Part shown: piece after piece, positions 6,428 to 63,510 of the stretch
Layout: every line of letters starts with the position of its first letter
How positions within the stretch are numbered: the first letter of the stretch is position 1
Sequence record: OP557969.1
DNA: 64,000 nt
Direction: 5' to 3' (one strand)
Source of the DNA: Escherichia phage ph0011
The notes under the pieces: generated by a model
The model's database searches: none
Told to the model about the DNA's origin: nothing
Seen by the model: the letters and a program-made list of their open reading frames with translations, nothing else
Made by a program: the position numbers and the translations under genes

Positions 6428-6567
6428 AGACGTTTCGTATGATGTATTCAAACGTACAATAAAACAATACTATATAACTTTTTATAATTGATATTTTTTA
6501 AAAAATACACAATCACAACGTGCTCCTTTTATTGGAATTTACCTTATTAATTATAGTTGAGGGGAAG

Positions 6568-6945: not shown

Positions 6946-7301
6946 TGGAATTTGATTTTGTAATATCAGTACATTCTTTCAAGAATAGTTTTCAGTACTT
7001 TTGTAATTTAAACAAAGGTGATTTAATGCACAGTGCAAATGAGTATATTCATTACACTGCTGGTAAATTTACATTTATTGATTACGATTCATTACAGTAT
7101 CCACATCAGGATATGCCGGACTTTACATTAATGGATGAGGCCGAACTATTCCAAGCTGCATTAGTATTCGATAAGAAGTACTTGTGTACACTAGAAGAAG
7201 TAATTGCCATACAAAATGAAATAAAAGAGTATGCTGCTTTGAATAAATCCAATGTAAGTATTAATCAAGAATACAAATTCAATATAGGAATTACAGAATG
7301 A
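6942..7301 (+). CDS. FQ-family paralog (short form)
   Basis: ATGA overlap; core DEAELFQAALVFDKKYLCTLEE. Confidence 0.7.
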   Translation: MMEFDFVISVHSFKNSFQYFCNLNKGDLMHSANEYIHYTAGKFTFIDYDSLQYPHQDMPDFTLMDEAELFQAALVFDKKYLCTLEEVIAIQNEIKEYAALNKSNVSINQEYKFNIGITE

Positions 7302-7663
7302 CATTTGATTATTCGATATACGTTTGCAAGTCCAGAACGGGGTGGGATTTGTGCTGTAATCTTGTCAAGGGTGACTCGGAACATGAGTTGAGTTTATATA
7401 TTCAGTACTCGGATTTGTGTTTTAATTTTATTGATGTATTGTATGATGACTTCGACTATAACTCTGAAAGTATTACAGATTATACAGTACTGGATGATGC
7501 TGAACTATTTCAAGCTTCTTTGGTGTTTGACAAGAATAAGTACTCATGTACAATAGAAGATATGATTTTTATACAAAATGAAATGAAGAGATATGTCAAA
7601 GAAAACACCTTTGATACATCTACACCAACAACAAGTAATTATTATTTCAATACAGGTGAGTAA
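7298..7663 (+). CDS. FQ-family paralog (short form)
   Basis: ATGA overlap; core DDAELFQASLVFDKNKYSCTIED. Confidence 0.7.
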   Translation: MTFDYSIYVCKSRTGWDLCCNLVKGDSEHELSLYIQYSDLCFNFIDVLYDDFDYNSESITDYTVLDDAELFQASLVFDKNKYSCTIEDMIFIQNEMKRYVKENTFDTSTPTTSNYYFNTGE

Positions 7664-7664
7664 T

Positions 7665-8006
7665 ATGGAATATGATTTTTCTATTTATATGCCTATAATT
7701 AGTTCACAAGATGTGTATTGTAATCTTAATAAAGGTGATTACGAACACAAAATGGATCAGTACATTAAATTTAATGGTGCGTACTTTAGCTTCATTGATT
7801 ATCAGGCCAAAGGATCAGTTGTAGAAAATATGAAAGACTATACAACAGTACATGGTGAGGCTGAAATATTTCAAGAGTCATTAATATTCGACAAGAAGTA
7901 CTTGTGTACTCTAGAGGAAGTAATTGAACTCCAACAGAAGATGAAAGAATATAGAAGAATCTACACAGAGACTGGTTCCAAAGATAGGTATCGTTTTAAG
8001 CTATGA
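7665..8006 (+). CDS. FQ-family paralog (short form)
   Basis: ATG at 7665 directly after upstream TAA; core GEAEIFQESLIFDKKYLCTLEE. Confidence 0.7.
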   Translation: MEYDFSIYMPIISSQDVYCNLNKGDYEHKMDQYIKFNGAYFSFIDYQAKGSVVENMKDYTTVHGEAEIFQESLIFDKKYLCTLEEVIELQQKMKEYRRIYTETGSKDRYRFKL

Positions 8007-8189: not shown

Positions 8190-8660
8190 ATGAGTTTTGA
8201 AAGAGCATTAGAAATTGCTAAGTTAATTGATGTATGTAAAAAAGAAATAGTGCTCAACAGACTCAATGGGTATCTATTCAAGGAAGGTAAATCTTATTGC
8301 CGAATGATATACGATGACAGTAGTGAATATATTCACATGTATGAAGAAAATCTTGATGAATCTGAAACAACACTCACTGGGTGTGATGTTAATCTGGAAG
8401 ATAATTACATGTACTTCTGTCGTGATGCTGATATTTTAATACAAGAAACATCATATCAAACTGGGAATCCAGAGGTATATCTTCCATATTCAGTACTGGA
8501 TAATGACTGGGGAAGTGAAGAGTTCTACTTCCAGCAGAATACTATCTACGATGAAGATGTACTTGACAAGCTTGTCATTCTGTGGTACTTTAAGAACACT
8601 GATACTCCTAACTTCTATATAGATTTGGATCTACTAAGAGTTATTAATGAGGATATATGA
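8190..8660 (+). CDS. FQ-family paralog (long form)
   Basis: ATG after GGGAG; N-terminal MSFERALEIAK; core PYSVLDNDWGSEEFYFQQNTIYD...WYFK. Confidence 0.7.
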   Translation: MSFERALEIAKLIDVCKKEIVLNRLNGYLFKEGKSYCRMIYDDSSEYIHMYEENLDESETTLTGCDVNLEDNYMYFCRDADILIQETSYQTGNPEVYLPYSVLDNDWGSEEFYFQQNTIYDEDVLDKLVILWYFKNTDTPNFYIDLDLLRVINEDI

Positions 8661-9097
8661 GTTTAGTAAGTGCACTTGAACTGGCACACAAAATACACAA
8701 CTTCCATGATAAAATAAAAAGTGGGTTTTATGGTGATAACGTAAGTGAATTTGGTAATGAGTATTATCTATCAAGTTCAAATACATACGCTGATGATATT
8801 TTACTTATGGGTCATGATAAAGACAATACTATACAGTACTCTTCATGTAGTCAATATGCTAGTTTTATGGTATATATTCCAGGAACTAAGATTACTTTTG
8901 ACACATCAAATACACCTGTTGACTTCGGGGTACTTGATGGTCCATGGGGTACTGAAGAGTATTACTTCCAACAGAGTCTTATTTTTAGCCAAGAGATGCT
9001 TGATACCTTGGTTGTGTTGTGGTACTTTAAAGAATTGAATTTTGAACCATTCTTTCTTGACTGGGGAGCATGTGAGTATTTAAGTTCAGGAGAATAA
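8657..9097 (+). CDS. FQ-family paralog (long form)
   Basis: ATGA overlap; N-terminal MSLVSALELAHK; core GPWGTEEYYFQQSLIFS...WYFK. Confidence 0.7.
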   Translation: MSLVSALELAHKIHNFHDKIKSGFYGDNVSEFGNEYYLSSSNTYADDILLMGHDKDNTIQYSSCSQYASFMVYIPGTKITFDTSNTPVDFGVLDGPWGTEEYYFQQSLIFSQEMLDTLVVLWYFKELNFEPFFLDWGACEYLSSGE

Positions 9098-9099
9098 TA

Positions 9100-9567
9100 A
9101 TGTCATTGCGAAGTGCATTGAAAGAAGCAAAGAAGATCCATAATTACATGATTATGGTACAAGAAGGTTCCGTGCCTGGTGTATATAAAACATCTGATAC
9201 TGAATTTTTCGTAAAAGATCGAGATGATTATGATGAGTCAGAGATATGTGCAGAAACGTTAGTACTGCACATTGATACGGATGATACTGATGACTGTGAA
9301 TATCAGATGCACAATCAATACCTTAGTTATTATAGGGATGAAGATATTATAATTTACACTCCTGATTACGATGATGATAACATAATCATTCCGTATTCAG
9401 TTCTGGAAGGTCCATGGGATAGTGAAGAATATTATTTCCAGCAAAGTACTGTGTATAATGAAGATGTTTTAGATGTTATTGTAATTATGTGGTACTTTAA
9501 AAGTATTGATTCTGACAGTTTCTATTTCGATTATGAATACGTAGAGAATACTGTAGGGGGAAGATAA
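9100..9567 (+). CDS. FQ-family paralog (long form)
   Basis: ATG after AGGAG; N-terminal MSLRSALKEAKK; core GPWDSEEYYFQQSTVYN...WYFK. Confidence 0.7.
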   Translation: MSLRSALKEAKKIHNYMIMVQEGSVPGVYKTSDTEFFVKDRDDYDESEICAETLVLHIDTDDTDDCEYQMHNQYLSYYRDEDIIIYTPDYDDDNIIIPYSVLEGPWDSEEYYFQQSTVYNEDVLDVIVIMWYFKSIDSDSFYFDYEYVENTVGGR

Positions 9568-10010
9568 TGTCATTACAAAGTGCTCTTGAAAAAGCAAAAG
9601 AACTTCATGCATATATTGAAGATATTAAGGCTGGGAAGTTCGAAGAAATATACAAAGCCGAGAATGGTAACTACTACAAGGATAGTGATTTTGCTACAAC
9701 TACAGTTATTCTTGGGTTGAATTCCAAAAGTCCAGTAGACTTTTCTCAATACAATCCAGATGCAGAATTTATTAGTTATGCTTATGGTGGCGAAATCCGT
9801 TTTTATAATCGCAGCAGACCTTTAAAATTGAACTTTGAAGTACTGAAAGGTCCGTGGGATAGTGAAGAGTACTACTTCCAGAATAGAACTTTGTATGATG
9901 ATGAAGTTCTAGATACTTTAGTTATTATGTGGTACTTTAAAAGTATTGATAGTACAAGATTTTATTTGGATTATGAATATGTACGTGAAGTTTATAAGGG
10001 TAAACGATGA
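9567..10010 (+). CDS. FQ-family paralog (long form)
   Basis: TAATG overlap; N-terminal MSLQSALEKAKE; core GPWDSEEYYFQNRTLYD...WYFK. Confidence 0.7.
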   Translation: MSLQSALEKAKELHAYIEDIKAGKFEEIYKAENGNYYKDSDFATTTVILGLNSKSPVDFSQYNPDAEFISYAYGGEIRFYNRSRPLKLNFEVLKGPWDSEEYYFQNRTLYDDEVLDTLVIMWYFKSIDSTRFYLDYEYVREVYKGKR

Positions 10011-13246: not shown

Positions 13247-13606
13247 ATGAATACCATTAGTATTACGTACTACACAACTAAAAAATACGTTTGTTGTTTA
13301 CTTTCTTTGAAGACTAATGATGATATGTTCAATAATGTGGCATATACATTAGAATTGTCAGAAGATGGTTTTCAATGTCATGAAGCATACTCAAATACAC
13401 GTGAAGATACAATTGATACTACGCTCATGCAAGAGGATGAATTATTTCAAGAAAGTTTAGTATGGGATAAAAAGTACTATTGTGATTTTGATTTTCTATG
13501 TTTAATCCAGAAAGAAATGAAAAGGATCTTCGACAATTATCCAGTGAAGAGATTAAGTTCTGGACCAGAGCAGTACAGGAGGATGATATTCCGATATGAA
13601 GACTAG
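13247..13606 (+). CDS. FQ-family paralog (short form)
   Basis: ATG after GAGG; core QEDELFQESLVWDKKYYCD. Confidence 0.7.
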   Translation: MNTISITYYTTKKYVCCLLSLKTNDDMFNNVAYTLELSEDGFQCHEAYSNTREDTIDTTLMQEDELFQESLVWDKKYYCDFDFLCLIQKEMKRIFDNYPVKRLSSGPEQYRRMIFRYED

Positions 13607-13931
13607 ATTAGTAAAAGTAATGTATGCTACACATATTAAACTACTTCTTGTGAAATTTGATTATAATAAAAAACACAATGAGTTTTATACTTTAATTCGT
13701 AATGAAGAATCATTTTCATTGAGATGTAATAATATACCAATGAAAATAAACGATTACACCACATTAGATGAGGGAGAACTATTCCAAGAATCATTAGTTA
13801 TTGATAGTAATATAAAAATAGATATAGAAATTATTAAGCAGTACCAGACGTTATTAAACAAAATTATGAATTGTTATCCCTGTAGAATAGAAGGTAATAT
13901 GCAATTTAAATCGAAAATGTACGAGTTGTGA
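13596..13931 (+). CDS. FQ-family paralog (short form)
   Basis: ATG ORF; core DEGELFQESLVID. Confidence 0.65.
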   Translation: MKTRLVKVMYATHIKLLLVKFDYNKKHNEFYTLIRNEESFSLRCNNIPMKINDYTTLDEGELFQESLVIDSNIKIDIEIIKQYQTLLNKIMNCYPCRIEGNMQFKSKMYEL

Positions 13932-14534: not shown

Positions 14535-15008
14535 ATGTCACCAGACCTCAATTTCGATAATGCACAAAAAATCGCACAATATATCATTAAACTTCATAAG
14601 TTTCTCATAACAGTTAAAGAGGATATAATTCTACCCAAAGGTAAACTTTATGTGGGCAAAAATTATTTGTCATATCGTGGAAATTTATTGTATACTACAG
14701 ATGAAAATTTCTGTGGTATTCGTGTAATTGACGATGTACCAACAGGAAACTTTATCTCATATTGTTTCCGTACATCTAGTCGTTTTAAGTACTATCATCC
14801 TAGATATGATGATGAACATGACACATTTGATGTTAGGACAGAAGAAGATTTTTTCCAGAACAGTACTTTACACGATGAGAGAATTGTGTTGAGTTCTACA
14901 ATTTTTACAGTTCTTAAAGATGAACTCAACGACGCAAATGATAGATTCTATATGGATTTAAACTTCGTAGATGAAATTATGGAGTACATGGAGACGAATG
15001 GTTTATGA
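14535..15008 (+). CDS. FQ-family paralog
   Basis: ATG after AAGGG; core TEEDFFQNSTLHD. Confidence 0.7.
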   Translation: MSPDLNFDNAQKIAQYIIKLHKFLITVKEDIILPKGKLYVGKNYLSYRGNLLYTTDENFCGIRVIDDVPTGNFISYCFRTSSRFKYYHPRYDDEHDTFDVRTEEDFFQNSTLHDERIVLSSTIFTVLKDELNDANDRFYMDLNFVDEIMEYMETNGL

Positions 15009-15475
15009 TTACAACAACATATGATTACGATGGTGTTTTGGAATTTGCATCTAACATTCATCGCATTGCTAAGGAGTTCAGAAGTCCCGAACCGTTTGGT
15101 GGAATGTTCCATTATGACATGTTCAGTTCACCCAAAGGAAAACTTGCCTATAAAAATAATAAGGGTAATCAAGTATATGCTGAAATCTTTGACGATAATG
15201 ACTTTCACTACAAAGCCGAATACATTTCATATTGTCCTGGGTCTGATTTGAAGATTTATATTGATAGGGATAAAGAAAATGTATTTGTTCCATATACTGA
15301 TTTAGTCTTCATGTCAGAGGAAATGTACTTTCAGGAATCATTGATTCATGATATAAAAGTTCTTAATGCTATATTATTATATGGTACACTACTTAATTAT
15401 TACAAATACAATCAAAGATTCTTTTTAGATTTAGAAGTATACTATATATGCGTGGATTATTTGAATGCAAAATAA
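15005..15475 (+). CDS. FQ-family paralog
   Basis: ATGA overlap; core SEEMYFQESLIHD. Confidence 0.7.
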   Translation: MITTTYDYDGVLEFASNIHRIAKEFRSPEPFGGMFHYDMFSSPKGKLAYKNNKGNQVYAEIFDDNDFHYKAEYISYCPGSDLKIYIDRDKENVFVPYTDLVFMSEEMYFQESLIHDIKVLNAILLYGTLLNYYKYNQRFFLDLEVYYICVDYLNAK

Positions 15476-34259: not shown

Positions 34260-34515
34260 AGCTGAACTGATCGTACAAACACTGCGTTTATTGAGGGATT
34301 TAGATATCCCACGCATGGATGTGAAACTTGAAGATATCTACATTGAATCTCTTAGTGAAGATTACACCGATACCGTAATGATGCTGAATGACGTGCTTTA
34401 TCGTATAGATAGCATCAGTCGTCTTGGAAGTACTTTAAAAGTGAATATGGAAAGAGTTGATAAACTTTATGTACATATATATAGTCTACCTATTTCAATA
34501 TTAAACTATAGATGA
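34252..34515 (+). CDS. small hypothetical protein
   Basis: In-frame ATG at 34252; 87 aa. Confidence 0.4.
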   Translation: MTKAELIVQTLRLLRDLDIPRMDVKLEDIYIESLSEDYTDTVMMLNDVLYRIDSISRLGSTLKVNMERVDKLYVHIYSLPISILNYR

Positions 34516-34981: not shown

Positions 34982-35240
34982 AGTTCTTATTGCTGAAACA
35001 ATGAATATGATTTATTTTATTACTACGGCACAGGATTTGTCTTATCCAGTGAAATCGTTACTTAGGTCAATGTATATTGATATTGTAAAAGAATATTATA
35101 AATCTAAACACAGAAGTATTATTAGTGTTTATCGTGATTATGAAAGGATTCGTATTTTATTCTGGAACAAGAACCGAGTTCGTGAGGAATGTGATCTAGT
35201 AGATTTTAAATTAGAGAATCTTTATTGTTACAAAATTTAA
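34962..35240 (+). CDS. small hypothetical protein
   Basis: In-frame ATG at 34962 after AAGGA. Confidence 0.5.
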   Translation: MTNTTNEVLIAETMNMIYFITTAQDLSYPVKSLLRSMYIDIVKEYYKSKHRSIISVYRDYERIRILFWNKNRVREECDLVDFKLENLYCYKI

Positions 35241-35296
35241 AAGATGATAAATATTTTACAAAAGAATGTTTTTTTAGAAAAAAAAGGATTTTGTAA

Positions 35297-36781
35297 ATGA
35301 AAGTATGTACGAATTTAAATGTTACTGGTGATATAACGTCTAATGGGATGACGTTAAGCAAGAATCATAATTATGAGAATTTTAGTGACCTACAAGAAAG
35401 ATGTACTAAAATGCTTTTACAATTTGATAAACCTGAAGTATACGATCCTGATATTACTATTACAATAACTACTAAAAATGTAAATTATACATATAAAGGA
35501 CCAATTGATGGTATGTGTGATATAGAAAATCCTTCATTGTATAAAATTTCCATGTATGTATACACTGACAAAGAGTATTTTATAAACGATGTACAATTAT
35601 CAGATGATGGTAGTTTTCATTTTTCTAAAACGAATAATGGCTCAAAACAATTTAGACTAATTAGAATATCTGATAATAAATGGATTGATACATTAGAATA
35701 TGCATTATTGACTAGAAGTTATATAATACCAGAAACTGAAGATTCGCAAGTTAGAAATACAATGAAAGATCGTTGTTACACATATGATCAAGCGGCAGTT
35801 GCTATTGCATTAATGGTACAAAACCACCCAGAGATGGATAGATATGTATATGGTTTGTGTCAATTGGTTGAGGAAAATGGTGGAATAAAATTTTTTGTTA
35901 ATAGGATATCGGCATTTTCCAATAGAGCATACTATAGAATGGGTAATGCTGCATGGGTATTATATGGATTAGCTTTTTACTTATGGAAATTCCCAGATGG
36001 GGTATATGCGAATTTGGCCCGTGAAAAACTTTTGTTAGGGTTAGAATGGGTATCAACTTTTAAAGTAACTACACCCGGTGATAAAAGAGAAGGTTTATAT
36101 ATGGGTGGAAAAGGAAAATTTATCAATAATGGTTCTCAATTTGACCCGAATTACATTGCTAGTTGGTGTGCAATGGAACACAATTTAGATCTTTGGTTTT
36201 TATTTGATCTATGCTCTGTTATTGGAATTCAGAATTATGATACAATAGCAAAGGAATTACATAATAATATAAATGATAAATTGTGGATAGAAAGTGAAGG
36301 ACGTTTTCGTCAAGGTGTACATGAAACAACAGATGATAATGCTGCTGCATTAGATCAATCATCATGGGGTGGTTTGTATTCTTTATATGCAGATGGTAAT
36401 GATACAAAAGCAGTAAAATGTCACAAATATATGGAACGTTTTATGTTTGGTACGTTGGAATGTGAGGGATATACGCCTTATAATAAATTATTTGGTTATC
36501 CAAATGCAGTACAAGGTGTATGGACTGAAGGAACTGCTGGTGTGGCTTTGTTTGAACGTGCATTGGGTAATGACAGAACTGCCGCAAAATTAATTGCTAA
36601 TTTGAAGCCTATATGTGACCCAGTTTATGGATATCGTGACTCATGTGATGACCCAGATTACGATGTTCTTCCAGATTGGCCTTCCTCGTGTAATACAGCA
36701 TGGATTATTCTGGCTATTAACCCACAAGGTTTCTGGAAAGTTGAAGCCCCACTGATGGATATTGGGCTTGTGAAATATTAA
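35297..36781 (+). CDS. large hypothetical protein, possible alpha/alpha-toroid (six-hairpin) glycoside-hydrolase-like fold
   Basis: ATG after AAGGA; 494 aa; repeated aromatic/Gly-rich segments (NAAWVLYGLAFY, LDQSSWGGLY, VWTEGTAGVALF, SCNTAWIILA); fold call is my pattern-based guess. Confidence 0.5.
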   Translation: MKVCTNLNVTGDITSNGMTLSKNHNYENFSDLQERCTKMLLQFDKPEVYDPDITITITTKNVNYTYKGPIDGMCDIENPSLYKISMYVYTDKEYFINDVQLSDDGSFHFSKTNNGSKQFRLIRISDNKWIDTLEYALLTRSYIIPETEDSQVRNTMKDRCYTYDQAAVAIALMVQNHPEMDRYVYGLCQLVEENGGIKFFVNRISAFSNRAYYRMGNAAWVLYGLAFYLWKFPDGVYANLAREKLLLGLEWVSTFKVTTPGDKREGLYMGGKGKFINNGSQFDPNYIASWCAMEHNLDLWFLFDLCSVIGIQNYDTIAKELHNNINDKLWIESEGRFRQGVHETTDDNAAALDQSSWGGLYSLYADGNDTKAVKCHKYMERFMFGTLECEGYTPYNKLFGYPNAVQGVWTEGTAGVALFERALGNDRTAAKLIANLKPICDPVYGYRDSCDDPDYDVLPDWPSSCNTAWIILAINPQGFWKVEAPLMDIGLVKY

Positions 36782-36793
36782 TTATAATAAAAA

Positions 36794-36825
36794 ATGAACA
36801 TATAAAAATATATGTTCATTTTTTT
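36794..36825 (+). terminator. rho-independent terminator
   Basis: ATGAACATATA-loop-TATATGTTCAT hairpin followed by T7. Confidence 0.6.
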
Positions 36826-36826
36826 A

Positions 36827-36854
36827 TGGACATTATTAATATTTGTGATATAAT
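36827..36854 (+). promoter_or_regulatory. sigma70-like early promoter with extended -10 (TGTGATATAAT)
   Basis: TGGACA-N16-TGaTATAAT directly downstream of the terminator. Confidence 0.5.
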
Positions 36855-36894: not shown

Positions 36895-37623
36895 GTGCTT
36901 GACCGTATCCGTTTTGCCACAGAGATGGCGAATGAATTAAACATGGCAAATTTTCAAATGTTAACATCAGTGATGGCTGAACATGCATGTGCTTATTCTG
37001 TAAGTGGTGTGCAGTGTGGTCAGGAGAATATGTTAGCAGATGTATATAGCGAAGTTCAAAGTAAACAATACAGTGTAAAGACGTACAAGGATAAGTTCGT
37101 TAGTCTTTATATGAATGAAGACATTTCAGAAGACCGCAAATATACTGATTTTATTATTGAACGAAGAGTATCAGGTGTATCTAATCCTAACGCACCAAGT
37201 GATGAAGTTTTTTCAGAAGTACTGAAAGATATATACGAAAATGAATTGAAAAGTAAGAATCATTACAATGTACGTGAAACTAACACTGTGCTCTTGGGAT
37301 ATGATGAAGACGATCAATATTATTATTTCCGTATGACAGAAGTCCCTTTTGAATACAAATCACCAAGTACTACTGCTGTAAAAGAATTTACCGAGAAAAG
37401 CAAGAACTACAAGAAACATGAAGGCAACCGTTGTAGTATAAATGGTTATAATGAAGATGGTGTTCATATATATGAATGGGTTCATCCTAATTGCCAGACA
37501 TATACCCGTTGCTTGAAGAAACGTTATAATTTAGAAGACAATGAATCCTTCTACTTTAAAGTTAAGAAACAAAGCTATACTCGCCCTGAAGATTCAGAAT
37601 TGATGGGTATGGTATATTTCTAA
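36895..37623 (+). CDS. hypothetical protein (start uncertain: GTG at 36895 or ATG at 36925)
   Basis: ORF track frame; AAGGAG at 36881-36886. Confidence 0.5.
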   Translation: MLDRIRFATEMANELNMANFQMLTSVMAEHACAYSVSGVQCGQENMLADVYSEVQSKQYSVKTYKDKFVSLYMNEDISEDRKYTDFIIERRVSGVSNPNAPSDEVFSEVLKDIYENELKSKNHYNVRETNTVLLGYDEDDQYYYFRMTEVPFEYKSPSTTAVKEFTEKSKNYKKHEGNRCSINGYNEDGVHIYEWVHPNCQTYTRCLKKRYNLEDNESFYFKVKKQSYTRPEDSELMGMVYF

Positions 37624-37632
37624 GGAACTGTT

Positions 37633-37914
37633 ATGGATTTTTACCTACACACATGGTCATACGAACAATACATTACATTATATCTTGAGATTATTAATAC
37701 TGATCCCAGATATGGTTGTGATTTTGCTGATATTATAAAAGAGTATGCAGATGAGTTTGAGTTTGTATATCTTGGCTCTGACCTATTCGTGAAGAGTGTA
37801 GGTAAAACCGGACGCATCACTGAGATTGATTATGATACTGTTAGTGTGAATTTCTATGTTGATTTTCCTTGTGATGGCGTTGATGGTGTATATTGTCTAT
37901 ATGAAATAATTTAA
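37633..37914 (+). CDS. hypothetical protein
   Basis: ATG after AAGGA; 93 aa. Confidence 0.6.
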   Translation: MDFYLHTWSYEQYITLYLEIINTDPRYGCDFADIIKEYADEFEFVYLGSDLFVKSVGKTGRITEIDYDTVSVNFYVDFPCDGVDGVYCLYEII

Positions 37915-39531: not shown

Positions 39532-39795
39532 ATGAATATCCAAGATAGATTACAATTGTTGTGCACACTTGAACAAGCTGCTTATGAACTTGTTAATAAA
39601 ATCTCTGAAGAACTTCCCAAAGGAACTAGAGTTCGTGTTCGTGAAATGGATTATGTAACGGGTGAAATTGAAGAAAAAGTTTTAACAGTGGTTAAAGTAA
39701 CATACTATGAGTCAGAGCTATCAATTCAATGTAAGTCAGATAATGGTTACATTTCCTACTATGGCACTGATATAGAGATGGAGGTAATCAAATGA
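39532..39795 (+). CDS. small hypothetical protein
   Basis: In-frame ATG at 39532 after GGTGGA. Confidence 0.5.
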   Translation: MNIQDRLQLLCTLEQAAYELVNKISEELPKGTRVRVREMDYVTGEIEEKVLTVVKVTYYESELSIQCKSDNGYISYYGTDIEMEVIK

Positions 39796-40934
39796 CCCTT
39801 TTACAAATATATGAAGATTTGATGCACTTATGTAATACCCGTGAGGCTTTCTTTTATGTAGATCATAAAAGTCCTGCTGGTGGCACATATCGTGTATTCA
39901 GTTATCGACTAGCATCATATACTGATTTCATGCAACCGAATGCATTGGAAACCCGTGGTTCTATGTGGGAAATCGATGACGATGGCAACATGATACGTTG
40001 TGCATCACGTTGTATGAAAAAGTTCTTTAATGCTTACGAAAATCCTGCTACGATGTTCCCTGCTGATACCAAATGTGATGACATTGCAGTAGTGATGCCT
40101 AAGTTGGATGGTTCAATTATCAGTTCTTACCGTGATAATGATGGTATTATTCGTTGTAAATCACATACCTCATTGTATTCTGACCATGCAATTAACAGTA
40201 CTCGACTAATTAACGAGAACCAGAATTTGTATCAGTACATTGATGAAGCTGAACGTTTGGGTTACACGGTTAACATGGAGTACACAAGCCCAGAGTACCG
40301 AATCGTATTGCCATATCAGGTAGAACAACTATTTGTTCTAAACGTCCGTCATCGTGTAAGTGGTGAATTGTTGTGTGGTAAAGCATTACGCGAAAAGTTT
40401 CCTTGTCTTTCACAGTACAGCACCAATATGACAGGTAAAGATATTCATCACACGTTTCCGGTAAGAAATACATTTCGTGAAAGTGTTGAAGAAGTTCATA
40501 AAATGCTTGATATTGAGGGTTTTGTTTGTATTCTAAAAGATGGGACAATGTGTAAAATAAAGACGGATTGGTATAGTTCATTACATCTAACAAAAGACAG
40601 TATCATTATTGATTCACATTTGTTCGAAGCTGTGTTAAATGGTTCAAGTGACGACTTGAAACAATTATTCAGTACTGACGAATATGCTATGCAAAAGATA
40701 TTGAGAATGGAACAATTGGTATTTTCGTGCTATAATTCATTACAAGATGAGGTAGAAAACTTCGTCAATACACACAAGCACTTGGGACGAAAGGAATTCG
40801 CAATGAAGGTTCAGGAGTGTTTGACTAATGAACTAAATCGTCAGGGCTTGGCCTTTGCAATGTATAACAATAAGTATGTTGATTATAAAGAAACTCTTAT
40901 CAAATACATGAAAGTAGTACTAAAGGACTTTTAG
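39792..40934 (+). CDS. rnlA: RNA ligase 1 (T4 Rnl1/gp63-like)
   Basis: ATGA overlap after GAGG; 380 aa; N-terminal segment FFYVDHKSPAGGTYRVFSYRLASYTDFMQPNALETRGSMWEID closely parallels T4 Rnl1 as I recall it, including the adenylylation-site lysine context. Confidence 0.9.
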   Translation: MTLLQIYEDLMHLCNTREAFFYVDHKSPAGGTYRVFSYRLASYTDFMQPNALETRGSMWEIDDDGNMIRCASRCMKKFFNAYENPATMFPADTKCDDIAVVMPKLDGSIISSYRDNDGIIRCKSHTSLYSDHAINSTRLINENQNLYQYIDEAERLGYTVNMEYTSPEYRIVLPYQVEQLFVLNVRHRVSGELLCGKALREKFPCLSQYSTNMTGKDIHHTFPVRNTFRESVEEVHKMLDIEGFVCILKDGTMCKIKTDWYSSLHLTKDSIIIDSHLFEAVLNGSSDDLKQLFSTDEYAMQKILRMEQLVFSCYNSLQDEVENFVNTHKHLGRKEFAMKVQECLTNELNRQGLAFAMYNNKYVDYKETLIKYMKVVLKDF

Positions 40935-42032: not shown

Positions 42033-42965
42033 ATGCCGACTATCACACTAACAGTTGGTTTACCTGGATGTGGTAAAACAACATGGGCAGTACAAGAGAT
42101 TAAAAAAGCCAAATCCAAGACTATCAATATCAACCGTGATGATATTCGTGAATCGATGGCTGGGTCACATGATGCTTACAAATTCAATGATGCTAATGAG
42201 AAGTACGTAACTAATTTACAGTTCAGTGCAGCAAAATTAGCAGCAGAGAATGGTTGGAATATTATTGTATCCGACACAAACCTTAAACCACATTTCCGTG
42301 AACAATGGAAAATGTGGGCTAAAGATAATGGTTATGATTATAAAGAAAAGAACTTCTATGATGATTTTGTACCAAAGGAAGACCGTGGTGCAGATGTTCA
42401 TGAATTCTTTAAGATTAAAGAGTTTGTAAAACTTTGTAAGAAATATAACCTCCAGCGTGAGCGTTCAGTACAAGATAATATCATTGACACAATGGCAGAT
42501 ACGTACTATTATAGTAAGGCATTGCATATTGGTTACTATGGTAATTCTCGTGAAGAAGCGATTATCGTTGATATCGATGGAACTCTTGCTCATAAATGGA
42601 ACCGCAATCCATTTGATGAAAGTACAGTTCTCCAAGATACACCAGACGAAGAAGTTATTTTGTCTGTTATCGCCGAAGCAGTTTTTCATAAACGCAAGAT
42701 TATTGTCATGAGTGGTCGTACTGAAGGGTGTCGTGCTGACACAGAACAGTGGTTGAAGAATTGGGGTGTTCCCTACGATGCATTGTTTATGCGAGGCATT
42801 GATGATAAACGTCCCGATGATGTTGTTAAATTCGACCTGTACATGAAAAATGTGGTTGATCATTACGATGTTAAAAAAGTATATGATGACAGAGCACAAG
42901 TCGTATTCATGTGGCGTAAACTACTTGGATTGAAAGTGATGCAAGTTGCGGAAGGAAATTTTTAG
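42033..42965 (+). CDS. pseT: polynucleotide 5'-kinase/3'-phosphatase (T4 Pnk-like)
   Basis: ATG after AAGGAG; P-loop GLPGCGKTT in kinase domain; phosphatase DxDGT motif (VDIDGTL); collinear with T4 PseT as I recall it. Confidence 0.92.
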   Translation: MPTITLTVGLPGCGKTTWAVQEIKKAKSKTININRDDIRESMAGSHDAYKFNDANEKYVTNLQFSAAKLAAENGWNIIVSDTNLKPHFREQWKMWAKDNGYDYKEKNFYDDFVPKEDRGADVHEFFKIKEFVKLCKKYNLQRERSVQDNIIDTMADTYYYSKALHIGYYGNSREEAIIVDIDGTLAHKWNRNPFDESTVLQDTPDEEVILSVIAEAVFHKRKIIVMSGRTEGCRADTEQWLKNWGVPYDALFMRGIDDKRPDDVVKFDLYMKNVVDHYDVKKVYDDRAQVVFMWRKLLGLKVMQVAEGNF

Positions 42966-48014: not shown

Positions 48015-49213
48015 TGGATTTTCCAGAGAAGTTATTTGTTGCACGTTCCTATATAAACCACAACCAAGTTAATGGTTATATTATCGATGCAACAAAATCA
48101 CACACAAAAGCATTCGAAACAAAGAAAGAAAGAGCTGAGTACTGGGCCAACAAGAACAAACTCCCATCGTTGTATATTGATAATGTACCAACTACAGGTT
48201 TTTGTGTAGTTGATAAATTGACAATTCATGCACGTGAAACATATTTCACTATCCGACATCCTGAAGGATTTGAATTTATGATTAGTTCCAAAAACATGAA
48301 TGATTTGATTATTAATAATGATATAATTAAAGGTGTTTTTGTTGACCCAATGTTTTTCAATAATAACTTAGAGTTGATCAATGGTAAAACAAAAGCATTT
48401 GCTAAGTTGGTTGATAAAGAAAATAAAAAAGAAAAACAAAAAGAAATTGTAGCAGGACTCAAAGTTGGTGATGGCTTCACTTATAACAAAGAAGATTACT
48501 ATTACTGTGGTAAAGTACATGCAATTTGTATAAAGAAAACTAAAGAATTTGCATACCCAGATAAAAGTTCAGTATATCATTTAGTGTTTAATAGTTCTCG
48601 TGGAACTTATGCTTTGAATCAACGTTTGGATAATTACAAACTGGAACCTCGTGCTCTTTTGAATAAGAAGACTACAACAGATGAAGAAATTAAACTTGCT
48701 AATGAATTTTGGCAAAGCTATAGAACAAACAGACATAACCCATTAGGTGAATCTAACATTCCAGTACTGGTACACAATAAATCATTTAAAGCAAAAGACC
48801 TTAAAATTAAATACGAAGAAATAAATGTTGATGATCTTATGAACAATGGACGTTTCAACGAAAACGTACCATTCATGACTAAAGATAATGAACAATCTTA
48901 TCGCGTATTTTTTGGTGTAAGTAATAATACAACACGTAGTTATTACGGGCGTAGTGGAGATTACACTATCCATTACAATGATAAATTTGAACGATTTAGT
49001 GCATATCCAGTTCAAATAGATGATAATGGAATTATGGTAATGGATGTTGATATTAACACACACTCTTCATTCAGTACATGGAATGGTCATCGTTCTCCAT
49101 TCTTTCCACCAAATGAACGCAAAACATCAAGTACTCGTTACTATCAAGATAAGCCGTGTCACGTACAACTAGCAATCAGCAATCCACTTTACATTGGAAA
49201 GTATTATCTATAA
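48014..49213 (+). CDS. hypothetical protein (399 aa)
   Basis: ATG at 48014 overlapping upstream TGA, 8 nt after GAGGA. Confidence 0.65.
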   Translation: MDFPEKLFVARSYINHNQVNGYIIDATKSHTKAFETKKERAEYWANKNKLPSLYIDNVPTTGFCVVDKLTIHARETYFTIRHPEGFEFMISSKNMNDLIINNDIIKGVFVDPMFFNNNLELINGKTKAFAKLVDKENKKEKQKEIVAGLKVGDGFTYNKEDYYYCGKVHAICIKKTKEFAYPDKSSVYHLVFNSSRGTYALNQRLDNYKLEPRALLNKKTTTDEEIKLANEFWQSYRTNRHNPLGESNIPVLVHNKSFKAKDLKIKYEEINVDDLMNNGRFNENVPFMTKDNEQSYRVFFGVSNNTTRSYYGRSGDYTIHYNDKFERFSAYPVQIDDNGIMVMDVDINTHSSFSTWNGHRSPFFPPNERKTSSTRYYQDKPCHVQLAISNPLYIGKYYL

Positions 49214-49224
49214 AGGAATATACA

Positions 49225-50643
49225 ATGAGCATTTTAGCAATTATTGAAAGCATTAAAAATACTAGTAGTACACTAGGCAAAAAAGCTATCCTTGAACAAA
49301 ATAAAGATAACTTAACTTTACAAAAAGTACTGAAATATACTCTCGACCCTTCAATTGTAAGTGGCTATAAGAAACTCCCTGCCGCTGATGACGTAGATCA
49401 ACATATGACGTTAGATGAAGCAATTGATAAGCTAGAATGCATTTACAAGCGTAGCTTGACAGGAAATGCGGGGCGTGATTTCATTGCTTCAGTACTGGGT
49501 TCAGTATCAGAAGATGATCAGGAAGTTCTCCGTAAAATGCTCACTAAGAACCTTGATTGTGGTATCCAAGAAAAGAACTGCAATGATGTGTTTGGTAAAG
49601 GATTCATCAAAGACGAACCATATATGCGTTGTTCTTTGATTGACAAAAAGACTGCAAAGAACATTAACTTCAAAGACTATGGCTATGCAGTCTCTGAGGT
49701 GAAAATGGATGGTCAGTACTTGAACCACGTTGTCATTAATGGTTCATTAACTTCTACATCCCGTAATGGTAAACTCTACGACTTCCTGGGTTGTCGTGAT
49801 GGTGAGATGGCAGGTCTTGCTCACATCATCCAAAGTAAAGATGAACGTTTTAGTAGTGGTGTAGTCTTTATGGGTGAAGGTGTAGTACTGGATACTGATG
49901 GAGAAACCATTCTCCCGCGTACTACAGGTAATGGTATTATTCAGAAAGCTGGAAAAGATTCAATCACTCAAAGTGAAGCAATGCGTACTGTATTCGTTCT
50001 ATGGGATGTTGTTCCATATGATGCATTCAGTGAAGGTGTATGGAATGTAAAACGTAAAGAACGCCGCGAGATCTTAGTTGGTGCAATCAATGAACTCGGT
50101 AGTGAATTTGTTCGTATGGTTGGGTTCCGTAAAGTTAACAACATCAAAGAAGCATTTGAGTACAACAGTGAACTGATGAACAAAGGTGAAGAAGGTTCAG
50201 TACTGAAATGTGAAGATGGTATCTGGAAATCTCATACTTCTCCTAAGCAGTTGAAAATGAAACTTAAGATGCAATTGGATTTGCGTATTGTTGGTTTCAA
50301 TGAAGGTGAAGGTAAGCGTAAAGGTAGCCTTGGTTCTTTACAACTGGAAAGTGCATGTGGTACACTAAAAGTAAATGTAGGTACAGGTATCCGTGAAAAA
50401 GATGCCGAATGGACGTTTAAAACCATTTGGGAAAGAATGCAAGAACTCATTGGTAAAGTAGTAACCGTGGAGTGCAATGATATAGTACAAGATAAGCGTA
50501 CTGGCGAACCATCACTATTTTTACCTGTGTTTATTGAATTTAGATTTGACAAAAACACTTGCGACGATTATACTCGTATCTTAGAAATTCGTGATAGTGC
50601 AGTTGAAGTGTTTTCAAACAGTATTATTGAAGTTTTAGGTTAA
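49225..50643 (+). CDS. 30: ATP-dependent DNA ligase (T4 gp30-like)
   Basis: ATG at 49225 after AAAGGAA; N-terminal KKAILEQNKDN and active-site KMDG (Kx-DG) motif; overall collinear with T4 DNA ligase as I recall it. Confidence 0.9.
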   Translation: MSILAIIESIKNTSSTLGKKAILEQNKDNLTLQKVLKYTLDPSIVSGYKKLPAADDVDQHMTLDEAIDKLECIYKRSLTGNAGRDFIASVLGSVSEDDQEVLRKMLTKNLDCGIQEKNCNDVFGKGFIKDEPYMRCSLIDKKTAKNINFKDYGYAVSEVKMDGQYLNHVVINGSLTSTSRNGKLYDFLGCRDGEMAGLAHIIQSKDERFSSGVVFMGEGVVLDTDGETILPRTTGNGIIQKAGKDSITQSEAMRTVFVLWDVVPYDAFSEGVWNVKRKERREILVGAINELGSEFVRMVGFRKVNNIKEAFEYNSELMNKGEEGSVLKCEDGIWKSHTSPKQLKMKLKMQLDLRIVGFNEGEGKRKGSLGSLQLESACGTLKVNVGTGIREKDAEWTFKTIWERMQELIGKVVTVECNDIVQDKRTGEPSLFLPVFIEFRFDKNTCDDYTRILEIRDSAVEVFSNSIIEVLG

Positions 50644-55356: not shown

Positions 55357-58029
55357 TTAAGCACTGATTGTTACAGTTGCAGTATCTTTTTTATTACCAT
55401 CCACTGTAGTCACTGTAATGATTACAGAACCTTCTTCTAGAGCAGTTACTAATCCATCATCACTAATAGATACTTTAGTAGGTTTATCTGCACTATAAGT
55501 TACTGATTTGTTAGTTGCTTTAGCTGGTAGAACTTCTGGAACTAGTTGAACTGTTTTAGTTCCTGATAGTGAAAGTTCAGTAGTTTTAGGTGTTAAACTA
55601 ACACTGGATACTGGAACTGGAATATTAACGATTACTGATGTTTGACCAGTAACATCACTACCATCAGCGGCAGTAGCGATAATATTTGCAGTACCATTAG
55701 TTAGTGCAGTTACGATACCAGTATTAGCATCTACTTTAGCAATTTCTGGAGCACTGGATGACCAAATTACATTTTTATTGGTTGCATCACTTGGGGTAAT
55801 TGCAGCAGCCATTTGTTTAGTTGCATTCAATGTAGTCAAAGTTTGATCTTTAGGAGTTACATCAATTGCAGTTACTGGCACTGGAATATTAACAGTAATA
55901 ACACCTTGACCTGTTTTACCACTTCCATCAGCAGCAGTTGCGATAATGTTTGCAGAACCGTTAGTTAACGCAGTTACAACACCAGTACTAGCATCTACTT
56001 TCGCTACAGCAGGTTTACTGGAAGACCATGTTACAGATTTATTTGTTGCGTTAGTTGGAAGAACTTCAGCAGCCATTGCTTGAGTTGCGTTAACAGCAGT
56101 CAATGTTTTAGTTGCTGGAGTAACATTAATAGATGCGACTGGAACTGGAATTGCTACAGTTACCGCACATTTTGCAGTTTTTGCTCCATCAGCAGTTGTT
56201 ACTGTGATATCAGCAGTGCCATTTGCTACAGCAGTGATTAAACCAGTTGGACTAACAGTTGCCACTCCATCAGCAGAAGTACTATAAGTTACTGCTTTGT
56301 TGGTAGCATTAGGTGGTAGTACAGTTGGTGTTAGTTGTTGAGTATCACCGACTGAAGTTAATTTAGCACTTGTTGGAGATACTGATACACTTGCAACAGG
56401 AACTGGAATGTTAACAGTTACCACGCAAACTTTAGAAAATCCACCATCAGATGTGGTTGCTGTAATATTTGCAGTACCGTTTGCAACAGCAGTGATTAAA
56501 CCAGTTGGACTTACCGTTGCGACACCCTCAGCAGAAGTAGTGTATGAAATATCTTTACGACGAGCGTTATCTGGAATAACAGATGCAGTTAGTTGTTGAG
56601 TAGCACCTACAGAAGTTAGGGTTGCTGTCAACGGAGTCATATTAATTCCAGTTACTGGGATCGTTACATCAATCACTGATTCAGCAGTTTTAGCACCATC
56701 ATCAGTGGTAACAGTAATAGTTGTAGTACCGTTATCAACCGAAGTTACTAGACCAGTATTACTAACTTTTGCTACGTCTGGATATGAAGAAACATATGAA
56801 ACTGCTTTATTGGATGCAGTTGCAGGAGCAACGGTTGTTTCTAATTGTTTAGTATCACCTAATGTTGAGAATGTATAAGTACTAGGAGTCATTGTGACAC
56901 CAGATACTGGTGTTTTCACTGTGATTGTAGTAGTGTCCGTTTTAGCACCATCTTCGGTTGTAGCTGTAATCACCACTGTGCCGTTAGCCACACCAGTTAC
57001 TAGACCAGAAGTAGGGTTAACAGTTGCTATATCAGGTGTTGCTGAAGACCACGTGACGTTTTTATTAGTTGCATCATCAGGAGATATTGTAGCAGTTAAT
57101 TGTTGAGTACTGCCAACGTTAATTGATGCAGTTTTAGGAGAAACAACAACACCACTAACTGGAGTTGTTACAGTAACAGTACATTTTGAAACAAATGAAC
57201 CATCAACTGTAGTTGCAATTACATCAGTACTGCCATCTGCAATACCAGTTACCATACCAGTTGGACTTACAGTTGCGAAGCGTGGTATACTGGATGACCA
57301 AATAACACTTTTATCACTTGCATCATCGGGTGATACGGTAGCTGTTAGTTGATGAGTTTTACCAACACCAAGAGATAGAGTTGAAGGAGAAACAACAACA
57401 CCACTAACTGGAGTTGTTACAGTAAATGCACAAACATCGGTGAAACCACCATCATGAGTAGTAACTGTTACATTTGCATTACCATTAGCACGGGCAATTG
57501 CTAAACCAGTTTGAGCATCAACTTCAACTATTGTTGGAGCAGAGGAACTATAACTTACTGTTGGATCATTTGCATAATCTGGATTAATTGTAGCTGATAG
57601 TTGTTGTGTGCTACCAACTTTAAGTGCTACTACTTTGGGTGAAATAATAACACCATTAACTGGTGTAGTATAATCACGTTTAACCACACGACCATTGTTC
57701 AATTTAATAATACGACCCATATAAAGAGTAGCATATCCCTTACTAATCCCATCATCTACATAAATCATAAATGAATTGTCTTGAACCATATTAATTGCGT
57801 CTACTGGCTTAACAGTATTTGGAATGTCGATACCACGGGTATCATACCAACACATGGAAACTTTGTAATATATATCACCATTATCATTGATGAGATCATA
57901 CACGTTACTGGAACGTTGACGGTTAATATATAAAGTTTCGGTTAATACCTTACCATCGATTTTAGCGACAGAAACTTTAATACCACCAATACCAAATGGC
58001 AATTTACCTTCACTAGATATTGCTTTCAT
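55357..58029 (-). CDS. large virion-surface-type protein with about nine to ten tandem Ig-like (Big_2-type) domains
   Basis: 890-aa ORF, the only strong minus-strand gene; AAGGAAA RBS; repeated 85-90-aa units TPVSGV..SP...L.VG.TQQLTATV.P.DATNK.V.WSS..P..A.V...G.VT.VA.GT..ITATT.DG; ~120-aa non-repeat N-terminal domain. Confidence 0.85.
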   Translation of the reverse strand: MKAISSEGKLPFGIGGIKVSVAKIDGKVLTETLYINRQRSSNVYDLINDNGDIYYKVSMCWYDTRGIDIPNTVKPVDAINMVQDNSFMIYVDDGISKGYATLYMGRIIKLNNGRVVKRDYTTPVNGVIISPKVVALKVGSTQQLSATINPDYANDPTVSYSSSAPTIVEVDAQTGLAIARANGNANVTVTTHDGGFTDVCAFTVTTPVSGVVVSPSTLSLGVGKTHQLTATVSPDDASDKSVIWSSSIPRFATVSPTGMVTGIADGSTDVIATTVDGSFVSKCTVTVTTPVSGVVVSPKTASINVGSTQQLTATISPDDATNKNVTWSSATPDIATVNPTSGLVTGVANGTVVITATTEDGAKTDTTTITVKTPVSGVTMTPSTYTFSTLGDTKQLETTVAPATASNKAVSYVSSYPDVAKVSNTGLVTSVDNGTTTITVTTDDGAKTAESVIDVTIPVTGINMTPLTATLTSVGATQQLTASVIPDNARRKDISYTTSAEGVATVSPTGLITAVANGTANITATTSDGGFSKVCVVTVNIPVPVASVSVSPTSAKLTSVGDTQQLTPTVLPPNATNKAVTYSTSADGVATVSPTGLITAVANGTADITVTTADGAKTAKCAVTVAIPVPVASINVTPATKTLTAVNATQAMAAEVLPTNATNKSVTWSSSKPAVAKVDASTGVVTALTNGSANIIATAADGSGKTGQGVITVNIPVPVTAIDVTPKDQTLTTLNATKQMAAAITPSDATNKNVIWSSSAPEIAKVDANTGIVTALTNGTANIIATAADGSDVTGQTSVIVNIPVPVSSVSLTPKTTELSLSGTKTVQLVPEVLPAKATNKSVTYSADKPTKVSISDDGLVTALEEGSVIITVTTVDGNKKDTATVTISA
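55360..57670 (-). repeat. in-frame tandem repeats of about 255-270 bp encoding Ig-like domains
   Basis: Recurrent nucleotide and peptide units visible across the gene body. Confidence 0.65.
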
Positions 58030-58066: not shown

Positions 58067-58074
58067 TATTTATA
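58067..58074 (-). promoter_or_regulatory. T4-type late promoter (TATAAATA)
   Basis: TATAAATA on the minus strand 38 nt upstream of the ATG at 58029. Confidence 0.45.
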
Positions 58075-62070: not shown

Positions 62071-63510
62071 ATGAAAAAATATACAATTGACACAAACGTA
62101 CTACTATCTGATCCAAATGCATCTGTTGCTTTTGATGGTGCTGCAATCATTCTACCATTTACAGTACTGGAAGAATTGGATTCGATTAAGAGTCGCAATG
62201 TTGATGTTTCACGTGATGCTCGTGTTGCGATTCGTAACATTGAAGCAATTATTGCAGAGGCATCACATAATGAGATTAGTTGTACTGGTGTTAATATTGC
62301 TGATGTTCATACCAATATGAGTCCTGAAAGCAAATTGTTTGTTATTACAAACGAAGAAGCTGAAGCACTAATTCGTACTAAGGCAATTGAAGATAAAGTT
62401 CAAACACTTCTCAAAAGTTCTGTACCAGATGATAAAATTATCTTAGTCGCTTTAGCAACTGATTCAGTACTGGTTACCCGTGATATCAATATGCGTATCA
62501 AGGCTCTTAGTTATGGAGTTGAAGTACAGGATTATCGTCATGATGTGGTTATCGGTGATAGCGATCTAATGCACGTAGGTCAACATCATCTCGATATCGA
62601 TTTCTGGGCAGAATTCAGTGGGATTGAAAATGCTGAAATTAAATCTGAAAAAACAGGTCGCCGCCTGTATCATTATATCCCAACACATCTAATCAAAGAT
62701 CTTCTTCCACAAAATCTTTGTATTGGTGACTATCTATATGATAATGCTGATGTGCTCTTTGTTTACGAAGGTCAGTCTGCAATCGAAGAAGATGATGGTA
62801 GTCTAACACCAGAAGATATTTTGGTCTTCCAAGATATTGGTCAATCTGTTGCATTACGTGCTAATGTATGGGATATTAAAGCTAAGAATGTCAAACAAGC
62901 ACTAGCTATTAATAGTATTCTCGATCCCGATGTACATCTAACAGTTCTACTAGGTTCTGCTGGGACAGGAAAAACACTAATTACGATTGCTACTGCACTA
63001 GAGTTAGTTCTGGAAAAACGTAAATACGACCGTATTATCTTCTCTAAAACACAAGATTCACAGTTTGAAGATATCGGATTCTTGCCTGGTTCAGAGGCCG
63101 AGAAAGTGATTCCATTTTGTGGTCCAGCGATTGACGCACTAGAGTACCTACATAAAGATGATGCAAATCCACAAGGTAGCATTGAGGAAATCATGAAACG
63201 TAATGTTATCCAGTTCAAAGCATTGAACTTTATTCGTGGTCGTTCTTTTGCCAATACAATTCTAATTGTGGATGAAGCACAGAACTTAACACCAGCCCAG
63301 CTAAAAACTGTCTTGACAAGAGCCGGAGAAAACTGTAAAGTAATCATACTTGGTAACCTAGCACAGATCGATAACAAGTTTATCAGTCCAGTAAACAGCG
63401 GTCTAACTTATGTAACTGAGAAATTTAAAAATTGGTCTGGTTGTCGTATCATTGAATTGGAAGGTGTTGTTCGTTCACCACTTGCTGAATTTGCTGAAGA
63501 AAATATGTAA
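62071..63510 (+). CDS. phoH: PhoH-like ATPase with N-terminal PIN domain (YlaK type)
   Basis: ATG after AAGGA; PIN-like N-terminus (YTIDTNVLLSDPNA...LEELD); Walker A LLGSAGTGKT, Walker B ILIVDEAQNL. Confidence 0.88.
   Translation: MKKYTIDTNVLLSDPNASVAFDGAAIILPFTVLEELDSIKSRNVDVSRDARVAIRNIEAIIAEASHNEISCTGVNIADVHTNMSPESKLFVITNEEAEALIRTKAIEDKVQTLLKSSVPDDKIILVALATDSVLVTRDINMRIKALSYGVEVQDYRHDVVIGDSDLMHVGQHHLDIDFWAEFSGIENAEIKSEKTGRRLYHYIPTHLIKDLLPQNLCIGDYLYDNADVLFVYEGQSAIEEDDGSLTPEDILVFQDIGQSVALRANVWDIKAKNVKQALAINSILDPDVHLTVLLGSAGTGKTLITIATALELVLEKRKYDRIIFSKTQDSQFEDIGFLPGSEAEKVIPFCGPAIDALEYLHKDDANPQGSIEEIMKRNVIQFKALNFIRGRSFANTILIVDEAQNLTPAQLKTVLTRAGENCKVIILGNLAQIDNKFISPVNSGLTYVTEKFKNWSGCRIIELEGVVRSPLAEFAEENM

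Follow-up and report, generated by a model that had tools for sequence, protein, structure and literature searches.

Background

Phage depolymerases, according to reviews, occur both as virion-bound and as soluble forms. Receptor-binding heads determine which bacteria a phage attacks, and the characterised depolymerase heads are nearly all beta-helices or beta-propellers. Among the polysaccharide-degrading folds of phage receptor-binding proteins the alpha/alpha-toroid is rare (~1%), with 11 of 984 proteins from INPHARED and 29 of about 3,900 proteins from Klebsiella prophages (PMC11326577, PMC12491483). In these depolymerases (DepoScope; Klebsiella prophage survey) the toroid forms the distal end of the receptor-binding protein, and the fold predicted for the 494-residue protein described here is of the same kind. 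The catalogues rely on known CAZy folds in anchored receptor-binding proteins, whereas the present copy is anchorless.

The closest relatives by sequence are the heads of enterobacterial prophage side tail fibres (PHROG 13714, 7032 and 4128), annotated as "prophage tail fiber N-terminal domain-containing protein". These fibres have 600–850 residues, consist of an anchor (PF08400, PF12571, PF18668 or PF03406) and a shaft followed by the head, and are encoded after J and lom or in tail gene clusters. Their two-domain head module is homologous to residues 25–494 of our protein, with 46–59% identity and common invariant residues. Unlike these fibres, the 494-residue protein lacks anchor and shaft, and its gene (33% versus 48% GC) is located away from the structural genes of a virulent jumbo phage. 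A second group, the methylmannose-polysaccharide hydrolase MmpH (PDB 7QSJ) and clan GH-L (GH15 glucoamylase, glucodextranase and dextran dextrinase; GH125), is similar in fold, but with just 7–13% identity and without a sequence-profile link; our protein also has an added N-terminal beta domain, and it belongs to phage fibres whereas these enzymes are metabolic.

The genetic arrangement resembles that of morons, the autonomous promoter–gene–terminator insertions of phage genomes: the insert sits exactly between genes that adjoin each other in relatives, has its own terminator and a promoter-like motif, and leaves the signals of the neighbouring genes working. It differs in that morons reside in temperate phages and have host-type promoters active in lysogens, whereas this cassette resides in a virulent jumbo phage and its motif is of the phage-late type. 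Also, unlike in morons, the base composition is not distinct from that of the genome (GC 33.1% versus 32.5%).

The kind of protein is already known, since alpha/alpha-toroid depolymerases have been listed and the PHROGs group the protein with tail fibres. What is new is that the heads of many fibres form a widespread family of (alpha/alpha)6 glycosidase-like modules without a curated family, that a jumbo phage bears this module as an anchorless cassette outside its structural genes, and that anchorless copies of the module recur.

Reading frame and upstream signals

The window, i.e. the whole 64-kb stretch of DNA that was analysed, belongs to a virulent Asteriusvirus (121Q/PBECO4-like) jumbo phage. 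The original prediction had placed a 494-residue protein on the + strand at 35297–36781, described it as the largest + strand protein in the middle of the window, and pointed to a near late-promoter sequence upstream. The reading frame, with an ATG start, was borne out by ORF and translation checks, and the size statement holds between about 27 and 48 kb, where this ORF exceeds all others; for the entire window it would fail, as the DNA ligase ORF at 49156–50643 (495 residues) is marginally longer. A ribosome-binding site, AAGGA, can be read from the sequence 8 nt upstream of the ATG (35284..35288, +). An in-frame TAA directly abuts the ATG on its 5' side, making a longer form of the protein impossible.

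The promoter-like sequence is ATAAATAT at 35247–35254, 50 nt upstream of the ATG. It includes an ATAAATA motif (35247..35253, +), located within GATAAATAT and immediately followed by A/T-rich sequence, which matches the T4-type late promoter TATAAATA at 7 of 8 positions. In the related phages CBB and GAP32, MEME identified ATAAATA plus an A/T-rich sequence upstream of structural genes; this was put forward as their late promoter, together with a gp55-like sigma factor (PMC5259590). The late-promoter resemblance in the original prediction is backed by this clade literature and by the strong depletion of the motif. ATAAATA is about 10-fold depleted in the genome; among the 21 A5T2 permutations it has the lowest count in the window (5 copies, versus 15–74 for the others), and likewise in the 100 kb of phage E9.1 that were examined (6 copies versus 11–102). 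The longer forms follow the same trend in the window, with ATAAATAT observed once versus 17 expected and TATAAATA twice versus 15 expected. Such avoidance is the expected outcome if the sequence is a functional signal.

An exact TATAAATA is found about 40 nt upstream of the gene at 55357–58029 (-), which encodes an Ig-domain virion structural protein and is the sole large minus-strand gene in the window; in the examined 100 kb of E9.1, one exact copy precedes an 898-residue ORF without known function. On the + strand of the window ATAAATA occurs only twice, and one of these copies lies in the leader of the 494-residue gene, making late expression of this gene plausible. The motif is identical in all six other copies of the cassette described below. 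With a 7/8 rather than an exact match, it should be regarded as a putative promoter of the cassette.

An inserted gene cassette between conserved genes

The 12 kb around the gene are about 87% identical to the Asteriusvirus phages slurp01, 121Q, G17, Sharanji and E9.1, with 85% covered, and the uncovered portion is the 494-residue gene. Blastn breakpoints (window 35234, corresponding to slurp01 L001 5744, and window 36828, corresponding to L001 5748) and the junction sequences delimit an inserted cassette of 1.59 kb (35235..36826, +), such that 1,592 bp stand in place of 3 bp (CAG) of slurp01. In slurp01 the empty site is flanked by a 92-residue and a 242-residue gene, with 58 bp between them. 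The site is also empty in EC22.5-2 and E9.1, and tblastn detected no homologue of the encoded protein in any Asteriusvirus record of the phage collection, slurp01 and EC22.5-2 included. No second cassette-like sequence was found elsewhere in the 64-kb window; a weak nucleotide match at 35762–35979 was considered as an internal paralogue, but rejected, as it represents the homologue from an Stx2k phage.

The cassette consists of a 62-nt A/T-rich leader with the GATAAATAT sequence, the ORF, and an intrinsic terminator (36790..36826, +). The terminator is an AT-rich hairpin with core ATGAACATATA / TATATGTTCAT and loop AAAA, followed by a T run; the hairpin begins 9 nt past the stop codon, and the terminator finishes at the right breakpoint. 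Its predicted RNA fold of -14.9 kcal/mol (z -5.2) was equalled by 0 of 200 shuffled sequences, while a G+C-based terminator scan overlooked this AT-rich hairpin. The insertion provides the upstream gene with a new stop (…YKI* versus …YKQGQ* without insert). The downstream gene has a resident sigma70-type promoter (36827..36854, +; TGGACA-N16-TGaTATAAT, 11/12 consensus), which lies outside the cassette, is intact after insertion and is conserved in slurp01. The layout is therefore that of an autonomous promoter–gene–terminator unit, of which the promoter part is putative. No terminator was found between the upstream genes and the cassette, so that read-through from upstream early promoters is possible. 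The neighbours are small hypothetical genes of the early type and genes for nucleic-acid and related enzymes (Dam methylase, cytidylyltransferase, RNA ligase, polynucleotide kinase), with no tail or fibre module.

Homology to tail-fibre heads and absence of an anchor

The translated ORF (35297..36781, +) corresponds to an anchorless tail-fibre head module, based on its match with PHROG 13714, "tail fiber protein" (E 5.7e-184), which covers profile positions 155–631 of 631 only. Further matches were found with phrog_7032 (E 3.5e-141) and phrog_4128 (E 1.7e-51). In all three "tail fiber protein" PHROGs, the profiles of which are 603–866 positions long, only the C-terminal ~470 positions are matched. 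The top phage match is a 609-residue "tail protein" of Stx2k phage phiSTEC1575 (WCJ00198; 56% identity over residues 26–494), encoded after J and lom, i.e. in the side-tail-fibre position. In a collection of 5.8 billion proteins the nearest relatives, with 46–59% identity, are prophage fibre heads of E. coli, Salmonella, Citrobacter and Yersinia. The homologous heads follow at least five types of N-terminal anchor (PF08400, PF12571, PF18668, PF03406 and PF25613).

More distant relatives (23–30% identity) form, in Microbacterium phages, the C-terminal end of the last minor tail protein and, in a Coprococcus phage, that of a protein encoded shortly past the tape measure with one gene in between; others occur in Thermus phages and Saccharibacteria. 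An exhaustive search gave at least 449 clusters at 50% identity from several phyla, and of 5,426 complete E. coli genomes 41 carry one variant of the family. Searches with the 494-residue protein gave no match in Pfam (E<=1) or NCBIfam and no defence or exclusion family in PADLOC, and neither phmmer with the single sequence nor the 57-sequence family profile matched any PDB sequence. Only one of the 57 family members has a marginal match to PF22422 (GH63-like; E 0.001). No experimental work on this module was found in the library of papers searched. Gifsy-1 Stf (PMC12312913) was considered as a characterised relative but dropped, as no link could be established.

None of the five anchor types was detected in the 494-residue protein. 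Its N-terminal 25 residues (35297..35371, +) are unique, predicted to be disordered (pLDDT 35–53 for residues 1–20 in the AlphaFold2 model) and contain no anchor domain; comparison with the homologues places the start of the conserved module at about residue 25. The N-terminal 38 residues, searched for an anchor or docking motif, had zero tblastn matches at E<=10 in 50,697 phage records. Direct reading of the N-terminus revealed neither a signal peptide nor a lipobox. The C-terminal-only PHROG match, the TAA codon before the ATG, and the disordered and unmatched N-terminus together establish that the protein is without a virion-anchoring domain. From this absence we infer that it most likely acts as a free, or at most loosely attached, enzyme.

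A different location is conceivable, namely that the protein is a virion component: an extra receptor-binding or depolymerase head, docked on branched fibres through its short N-terminal peptide or its beta domain, that would widen the host range. We regard this as unlikely, albeit deserving serious consideration. Those homologues that can be characterised are all proteins of tail fibres or tails, the late-promoter-like motif would suit a structural gene, and jumbo phages of the Rak2 clade assemble hyperbranched fibres from many proteins (PMC9700779). In one anchorless relative, P0074 (see below), the module is N-terminal and the gene belongs to a fibre cluster. However, P0074 carries a C-terminal DUF7941 extension that is missing here, none of the five known anchors is present, the ~25 disordered residues preceding the module are unmatched in the 50,697 phage records, and the gene is located among small early-type genes and nucleic-acid enzymes, away from the tail genes.

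Predicted fold and conserved residues

An AlphaFold2 model based on the 57-sequence alignment has a pLDDT of 94 and a pTM of 0.92. According to DSSP analysis of this model, residues 26–134 (35372..35698, +) form a beta-rich N-terminal domain of one helix and seven strands, in which G115 and K117 are invariant in the 57-sequence alignment. Structure prediction and fold searches identify residues ~150–481 (35744..36739, +) as an (alpha/alpha)6 barrel, modelled with about twelve long helices that form six hairpins in two concentric layers. Fold searches gave values of 30.9 for MmpH, a mycobacterial endo-alpha-1,4-mannosidase, 30.8 for a GH15 dextran dextrinase, 29.5 for a GH15-related glycosidase, about 29 for cellobiose 2-epimerases and 27.5 for GH76. 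In the viral library BFVD the single strong match was F9VHN7 (585 residues, the length of Thermus phage TMA_030), next to giant-virus glucoamylase-like barrels. As the family profile finds no PDB or Pfam glycosidase, the barrel represents an uncurated family within the (alpha/alpha)6 fold.

These results agree with the original prediction, in which an alpha/alpha-toroid spacing of helices and a six-hairpin glycosidase-like fold had been recognised and a fold comparison proposed as a check: (alpha/alpha)6 glycosidases were matched, and no competing unrelated fold emerged. The suggested roles, be it as a virion protein or as a polysaccharide-modifying enzyme (depolymerase or cell-wall enzyme), fit homologues that are phage tail-fibre heads. 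Features that had not been foreseen are the insertion of the cassette at a site that is empty in close relatives, the lack of a virion anchor, and the lack of a curated glycoside-hydrolase family.

Twelve polar and aromatic residues, Y163, D164, R214, E294, H295, D298, D347, D353, W357, W409, E411 and W469, are 88–98% conserved among 156 non-redundant family members (<70% identical). All twelve are retained in the 494-residue protein, which deviates from the >=75% consensus at three positions only, all of them non-polar. Mapping onto secondary structure (DSSP), rather than 3D coordinates, places Y163/D164, R214, E294/H295/D298, D353/W357 and W409/E411 each at the start of an alternate helix (residues 162–173, 215–231, 293–308, 352–366 and 410–422, respectively), with D347 in the loop ahead of the 352–366 helix and W469 within the 464–474 helix. 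In the (alpha/alpha)6 enzymes MmpH and GH15/GH125, carboxylate acid/base pairs are located at the funnel-forming helix ends (PMC9883506); in MmpH the catalytic base and acid are E262 and D47. By its position in the sequence, E411 is a candidate for the catalytic base. Because the carboxylates are invariant across hosts as diverse as Enterobacterales and Actinobacteria, we favour a shared catalytic machinery over unrelated binding sites. It would be rather improbable, in our estimate, that the barrel is a non-catalytic carbohydrate-binding head (adhesin or lectin), or that it performs another chemistry such as epimerisation or a lyase reaction. A non-hydrolytic head of this kind would be compatible with either answer on the location of the protein.

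Evolution of the cassette

The 494-residue gene has a GC content of 33.1% and a GC3 of 20.4%, in a window of 32.5% GC, while a prophage homologue has 48% GC and a GC3 of 46% over its full length and 47% within the module. Such a phage-like codon composition suggests long residence in low-GC phages. The protein forms a separate deep branch, with 52–59% identity to the modules of group 1, which are 63–94% identical among themselves, and 47–48% to those of group 2. That the gene was taken up recently from an E. coli prophage was considered, and rejected on account of this separate deep branch, the best non-self relative among 5.8 billion proteins being only 59% identical, and of the composition, which is already phage-like. 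The donor was probably a low-GC genome that has not been sampled.

The cassette is found at the same site, with the gene identical in protein and nucleotide sequence, on contigs that come from at least six independent samples and include a scaffold of 349 kb. The flanks of these copies differ by 0.35–1.85% outside mosaic patches, from which 5–27 differences would be expected in the gene (mosaic patches excluded), versus 0 observed. This suggests a recent spread of the cassette by recombination, short of proof, since the flanks too contain 1.4-kb runs without differences. Close to the gene, the only variable features are the A/T-run length of the leader and the loop of the terminator. Such identity of sequence across at least six samples suggests that the gene is maintained.

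The copies lack nucleotide differences, so purifying selection on the gene is not measurable, which would be consistent with the cassette being a functionless hitch-hiker, a fibre fragment from illegitimate recombination that has yet to decay. The gene indeed resembles a truncated fibre gene, and the cassette is dispensable, as most Asteriusvirus genomes lack it. Nevertheless, we consider this explanation highly improbable: the ORF is intact with its own ribosome-binding site and terminator, all family-invariant residues are kept, GC3 is phage-like (20% versus 46% in the prophage homologue), the deep branch at 52–59% identity shows no frameshifts, and the cassette has been retained in six samples or more although their flanks differ.

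Anchorless copies in other elements

Proteins with the module but without an N-terminal anchor were found in several other lineages. P0072 (482 residues, 54% identity) is encoded directly after a PhoH gene on a contig of E. coli that is about 103 kb long, among genes for DnaB, CobT, AAA_5, Pol III alpha and an integrase; the integrase region of this contig resembles non-mobilizable plasmids of 105–117 kb. P0189 (504 residues, 45% identity) is encoded after PhoH and before a portal/head module. Both are anchorless and located outside tail modules. In P0074, the module is N-terminal and followed by the DUF7941 extension, and the gene lies beside those for a Gp34-like fibre and a Gp38-like adhesin. 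These three proteins thus show recurrent use of the module without an N-terminal anchor, although P0074, being anchorless at its N-terminus yet part of a fibre gene cluster, counts against the free-enzyme mode.

The position of P0072 and P0189 next to PhoH, among replication and metabolism genes, would also fit an intracellular role, in which the protein acts on cytoplasmic glycans or on lipid-linked precursors of surface glycans, thereby remodelling the cell surface (superinfection exclusion) or redirecting host carbohydrate. The lack of a signal peptide or lipobox, the early-type region and the possible read-through from upstream promoters are consistent with such a role. On the other hand, the anchored homologues must all act extracellularly at the fibre tip, the motif in the cassette is of the late rather than the early type, and no defence or exclusion family was matched; we therefore consider intracellular action very unlikely.

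Proposed function and significance

We propose, with somewhat better than even confidence, that the locus is an acquired, self-contained cassette encoding an anchorless polysaccharide-hydrolase head, probably expressed late and acting free or loosely attached on host glycan. A transcription unit comprising the late-promoter-like ATAAATA, ribosome-binding site, ORF and intrinsic terminator would have been acquired horizontally between two conserved Asteriusvirus genes. Its product is a stand-alone distal head, composed of the beta domain and the (alpha/alpha)6-barrel glycoside-hydrolase-like domain. The barrel would most likely bind and cleave a host surface polysaccharide in a funnel that may be lined by D164, E294, D298, D347, D353, E411, H295, R214 and the tryptophans. 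Made late and freed at lysis, the protein could strip surface glycan from neighbouring cells or debris.

As a tentative and wider reading, which we put forward with some doubt, the module may constitute a glycoside-hydrolase family that is both new and widespread, situated at the tips of the side tail fibres of enterobacterial prophages, those of Stx phages included, with a target shared across Enterobacterales, e.g. colanic acid, enterobacterial common antigen or LPS core. In that case the anchorless copies would be recurrent non-virion, lysis-released, receptor-destroying enzymes: free enzymes of large phages, represented by the present jumbo phage and by two phage-like elements with the gene next to PhoH, of which one is plasmid-like.

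The receptors of this jumbo phage are poorly known (PMC11895373). Knowledge of the substrate would close a gap in our understanding of E. coli recognition by lambdoid prophages, Stx phages included, and could add a new glycoside-hydrolase family. With the anchorless cassette, nature supplies the enzyme in an already soluble form suited to expression, and the phage lineages with and without it provide a natural experiment on the benefit of a free depolymerase.

Mosaicism and gene content around the cassette

Two short mosaic patches lie near the inserted cassette that carries the tail-fibre head gene. One (window 34282-34511) is without alignment to the cassette-free relatives slurp01 or EC22.5-2. 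At the other (window ~37300-37900) two metagenomic copies of the region (L007 and L009), which are otherwise ~99% identical, differ by ~20-45% per 100 nt. These patches indicate allele replacement by recombination near the cassette.

A set of nucleic-acid repair enzymes is encoded downstream of the cassette, consisting of an RnlA-type RNA ligase (39792-40934, +), labelled 'RNA ligase and tail fiber attachment catalyst' in relatives, a polynucleotide kinase (42033-42965, +) and an ATP-dependent DNA ligase (49156-50643, +). Small paralogous ORFs arranged in tandem on the + strand fall into two families by all-against-all blastp (E<1e-5), one with six members (6520-8006 and 13247-13931) and one with five (8190-10010 and 15005-15475). 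ARAGORN detected neither tRNA nor tmRNA genes in window 1-64000; several tRNAs are encoded elsewhere in the genomes of related jumbo phages.

Late-promoter motifs and an Ig-like virion gene

The motifs ATAAATA and TATAAATA are depleted about 10-fold in both the whole window and positions 1-100000 of the related phage E9.1, and among the 21 A5T2 permutations ATAAATA has the fewest copies in each sequence. This is consistent with a role of the motif as the late promoter of this phage group. An exact copy of the T4-type late-promoter motif TATAAATA (58067-58074) is located ~40 nt upstream of the only large minus-strand gene in the window (55357-58029, -), which encodes a virion structural protein of 890 residues with many Ig-like repeats (PHROG 215/341). 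The length of this locus is variable among relatives, since the annotation of E9.1 has only a 125-residue 'virion structural protein' at the equivalent position (82306-82683), versus 890 residues here.

Non-tail contexts of the module family

In two other phage-like elements (L013-L016, an E. coli contig of ~103 kb, and L017), a PhoH-like gene is directly followed by a stand-alone copy of the tail-fibre head module (P0072 and P0189). The PhoH gene of the window (62071-63510) is 25 kb from the cassette, and therefore this association is absent here. The sequence AATAAATA is conserved 3' of the PhoH gene in the window (63799) and in E9.1 (88387). The homologue from Thermus phage TMA, TMA_030 (L005 4446-6203), adjoins a sugar-phosphate nucleotidyltransferase gene and is close to the DNA polymerase gene, outside any obvious tail module, and its locus is a further non-tail setting for the module family.
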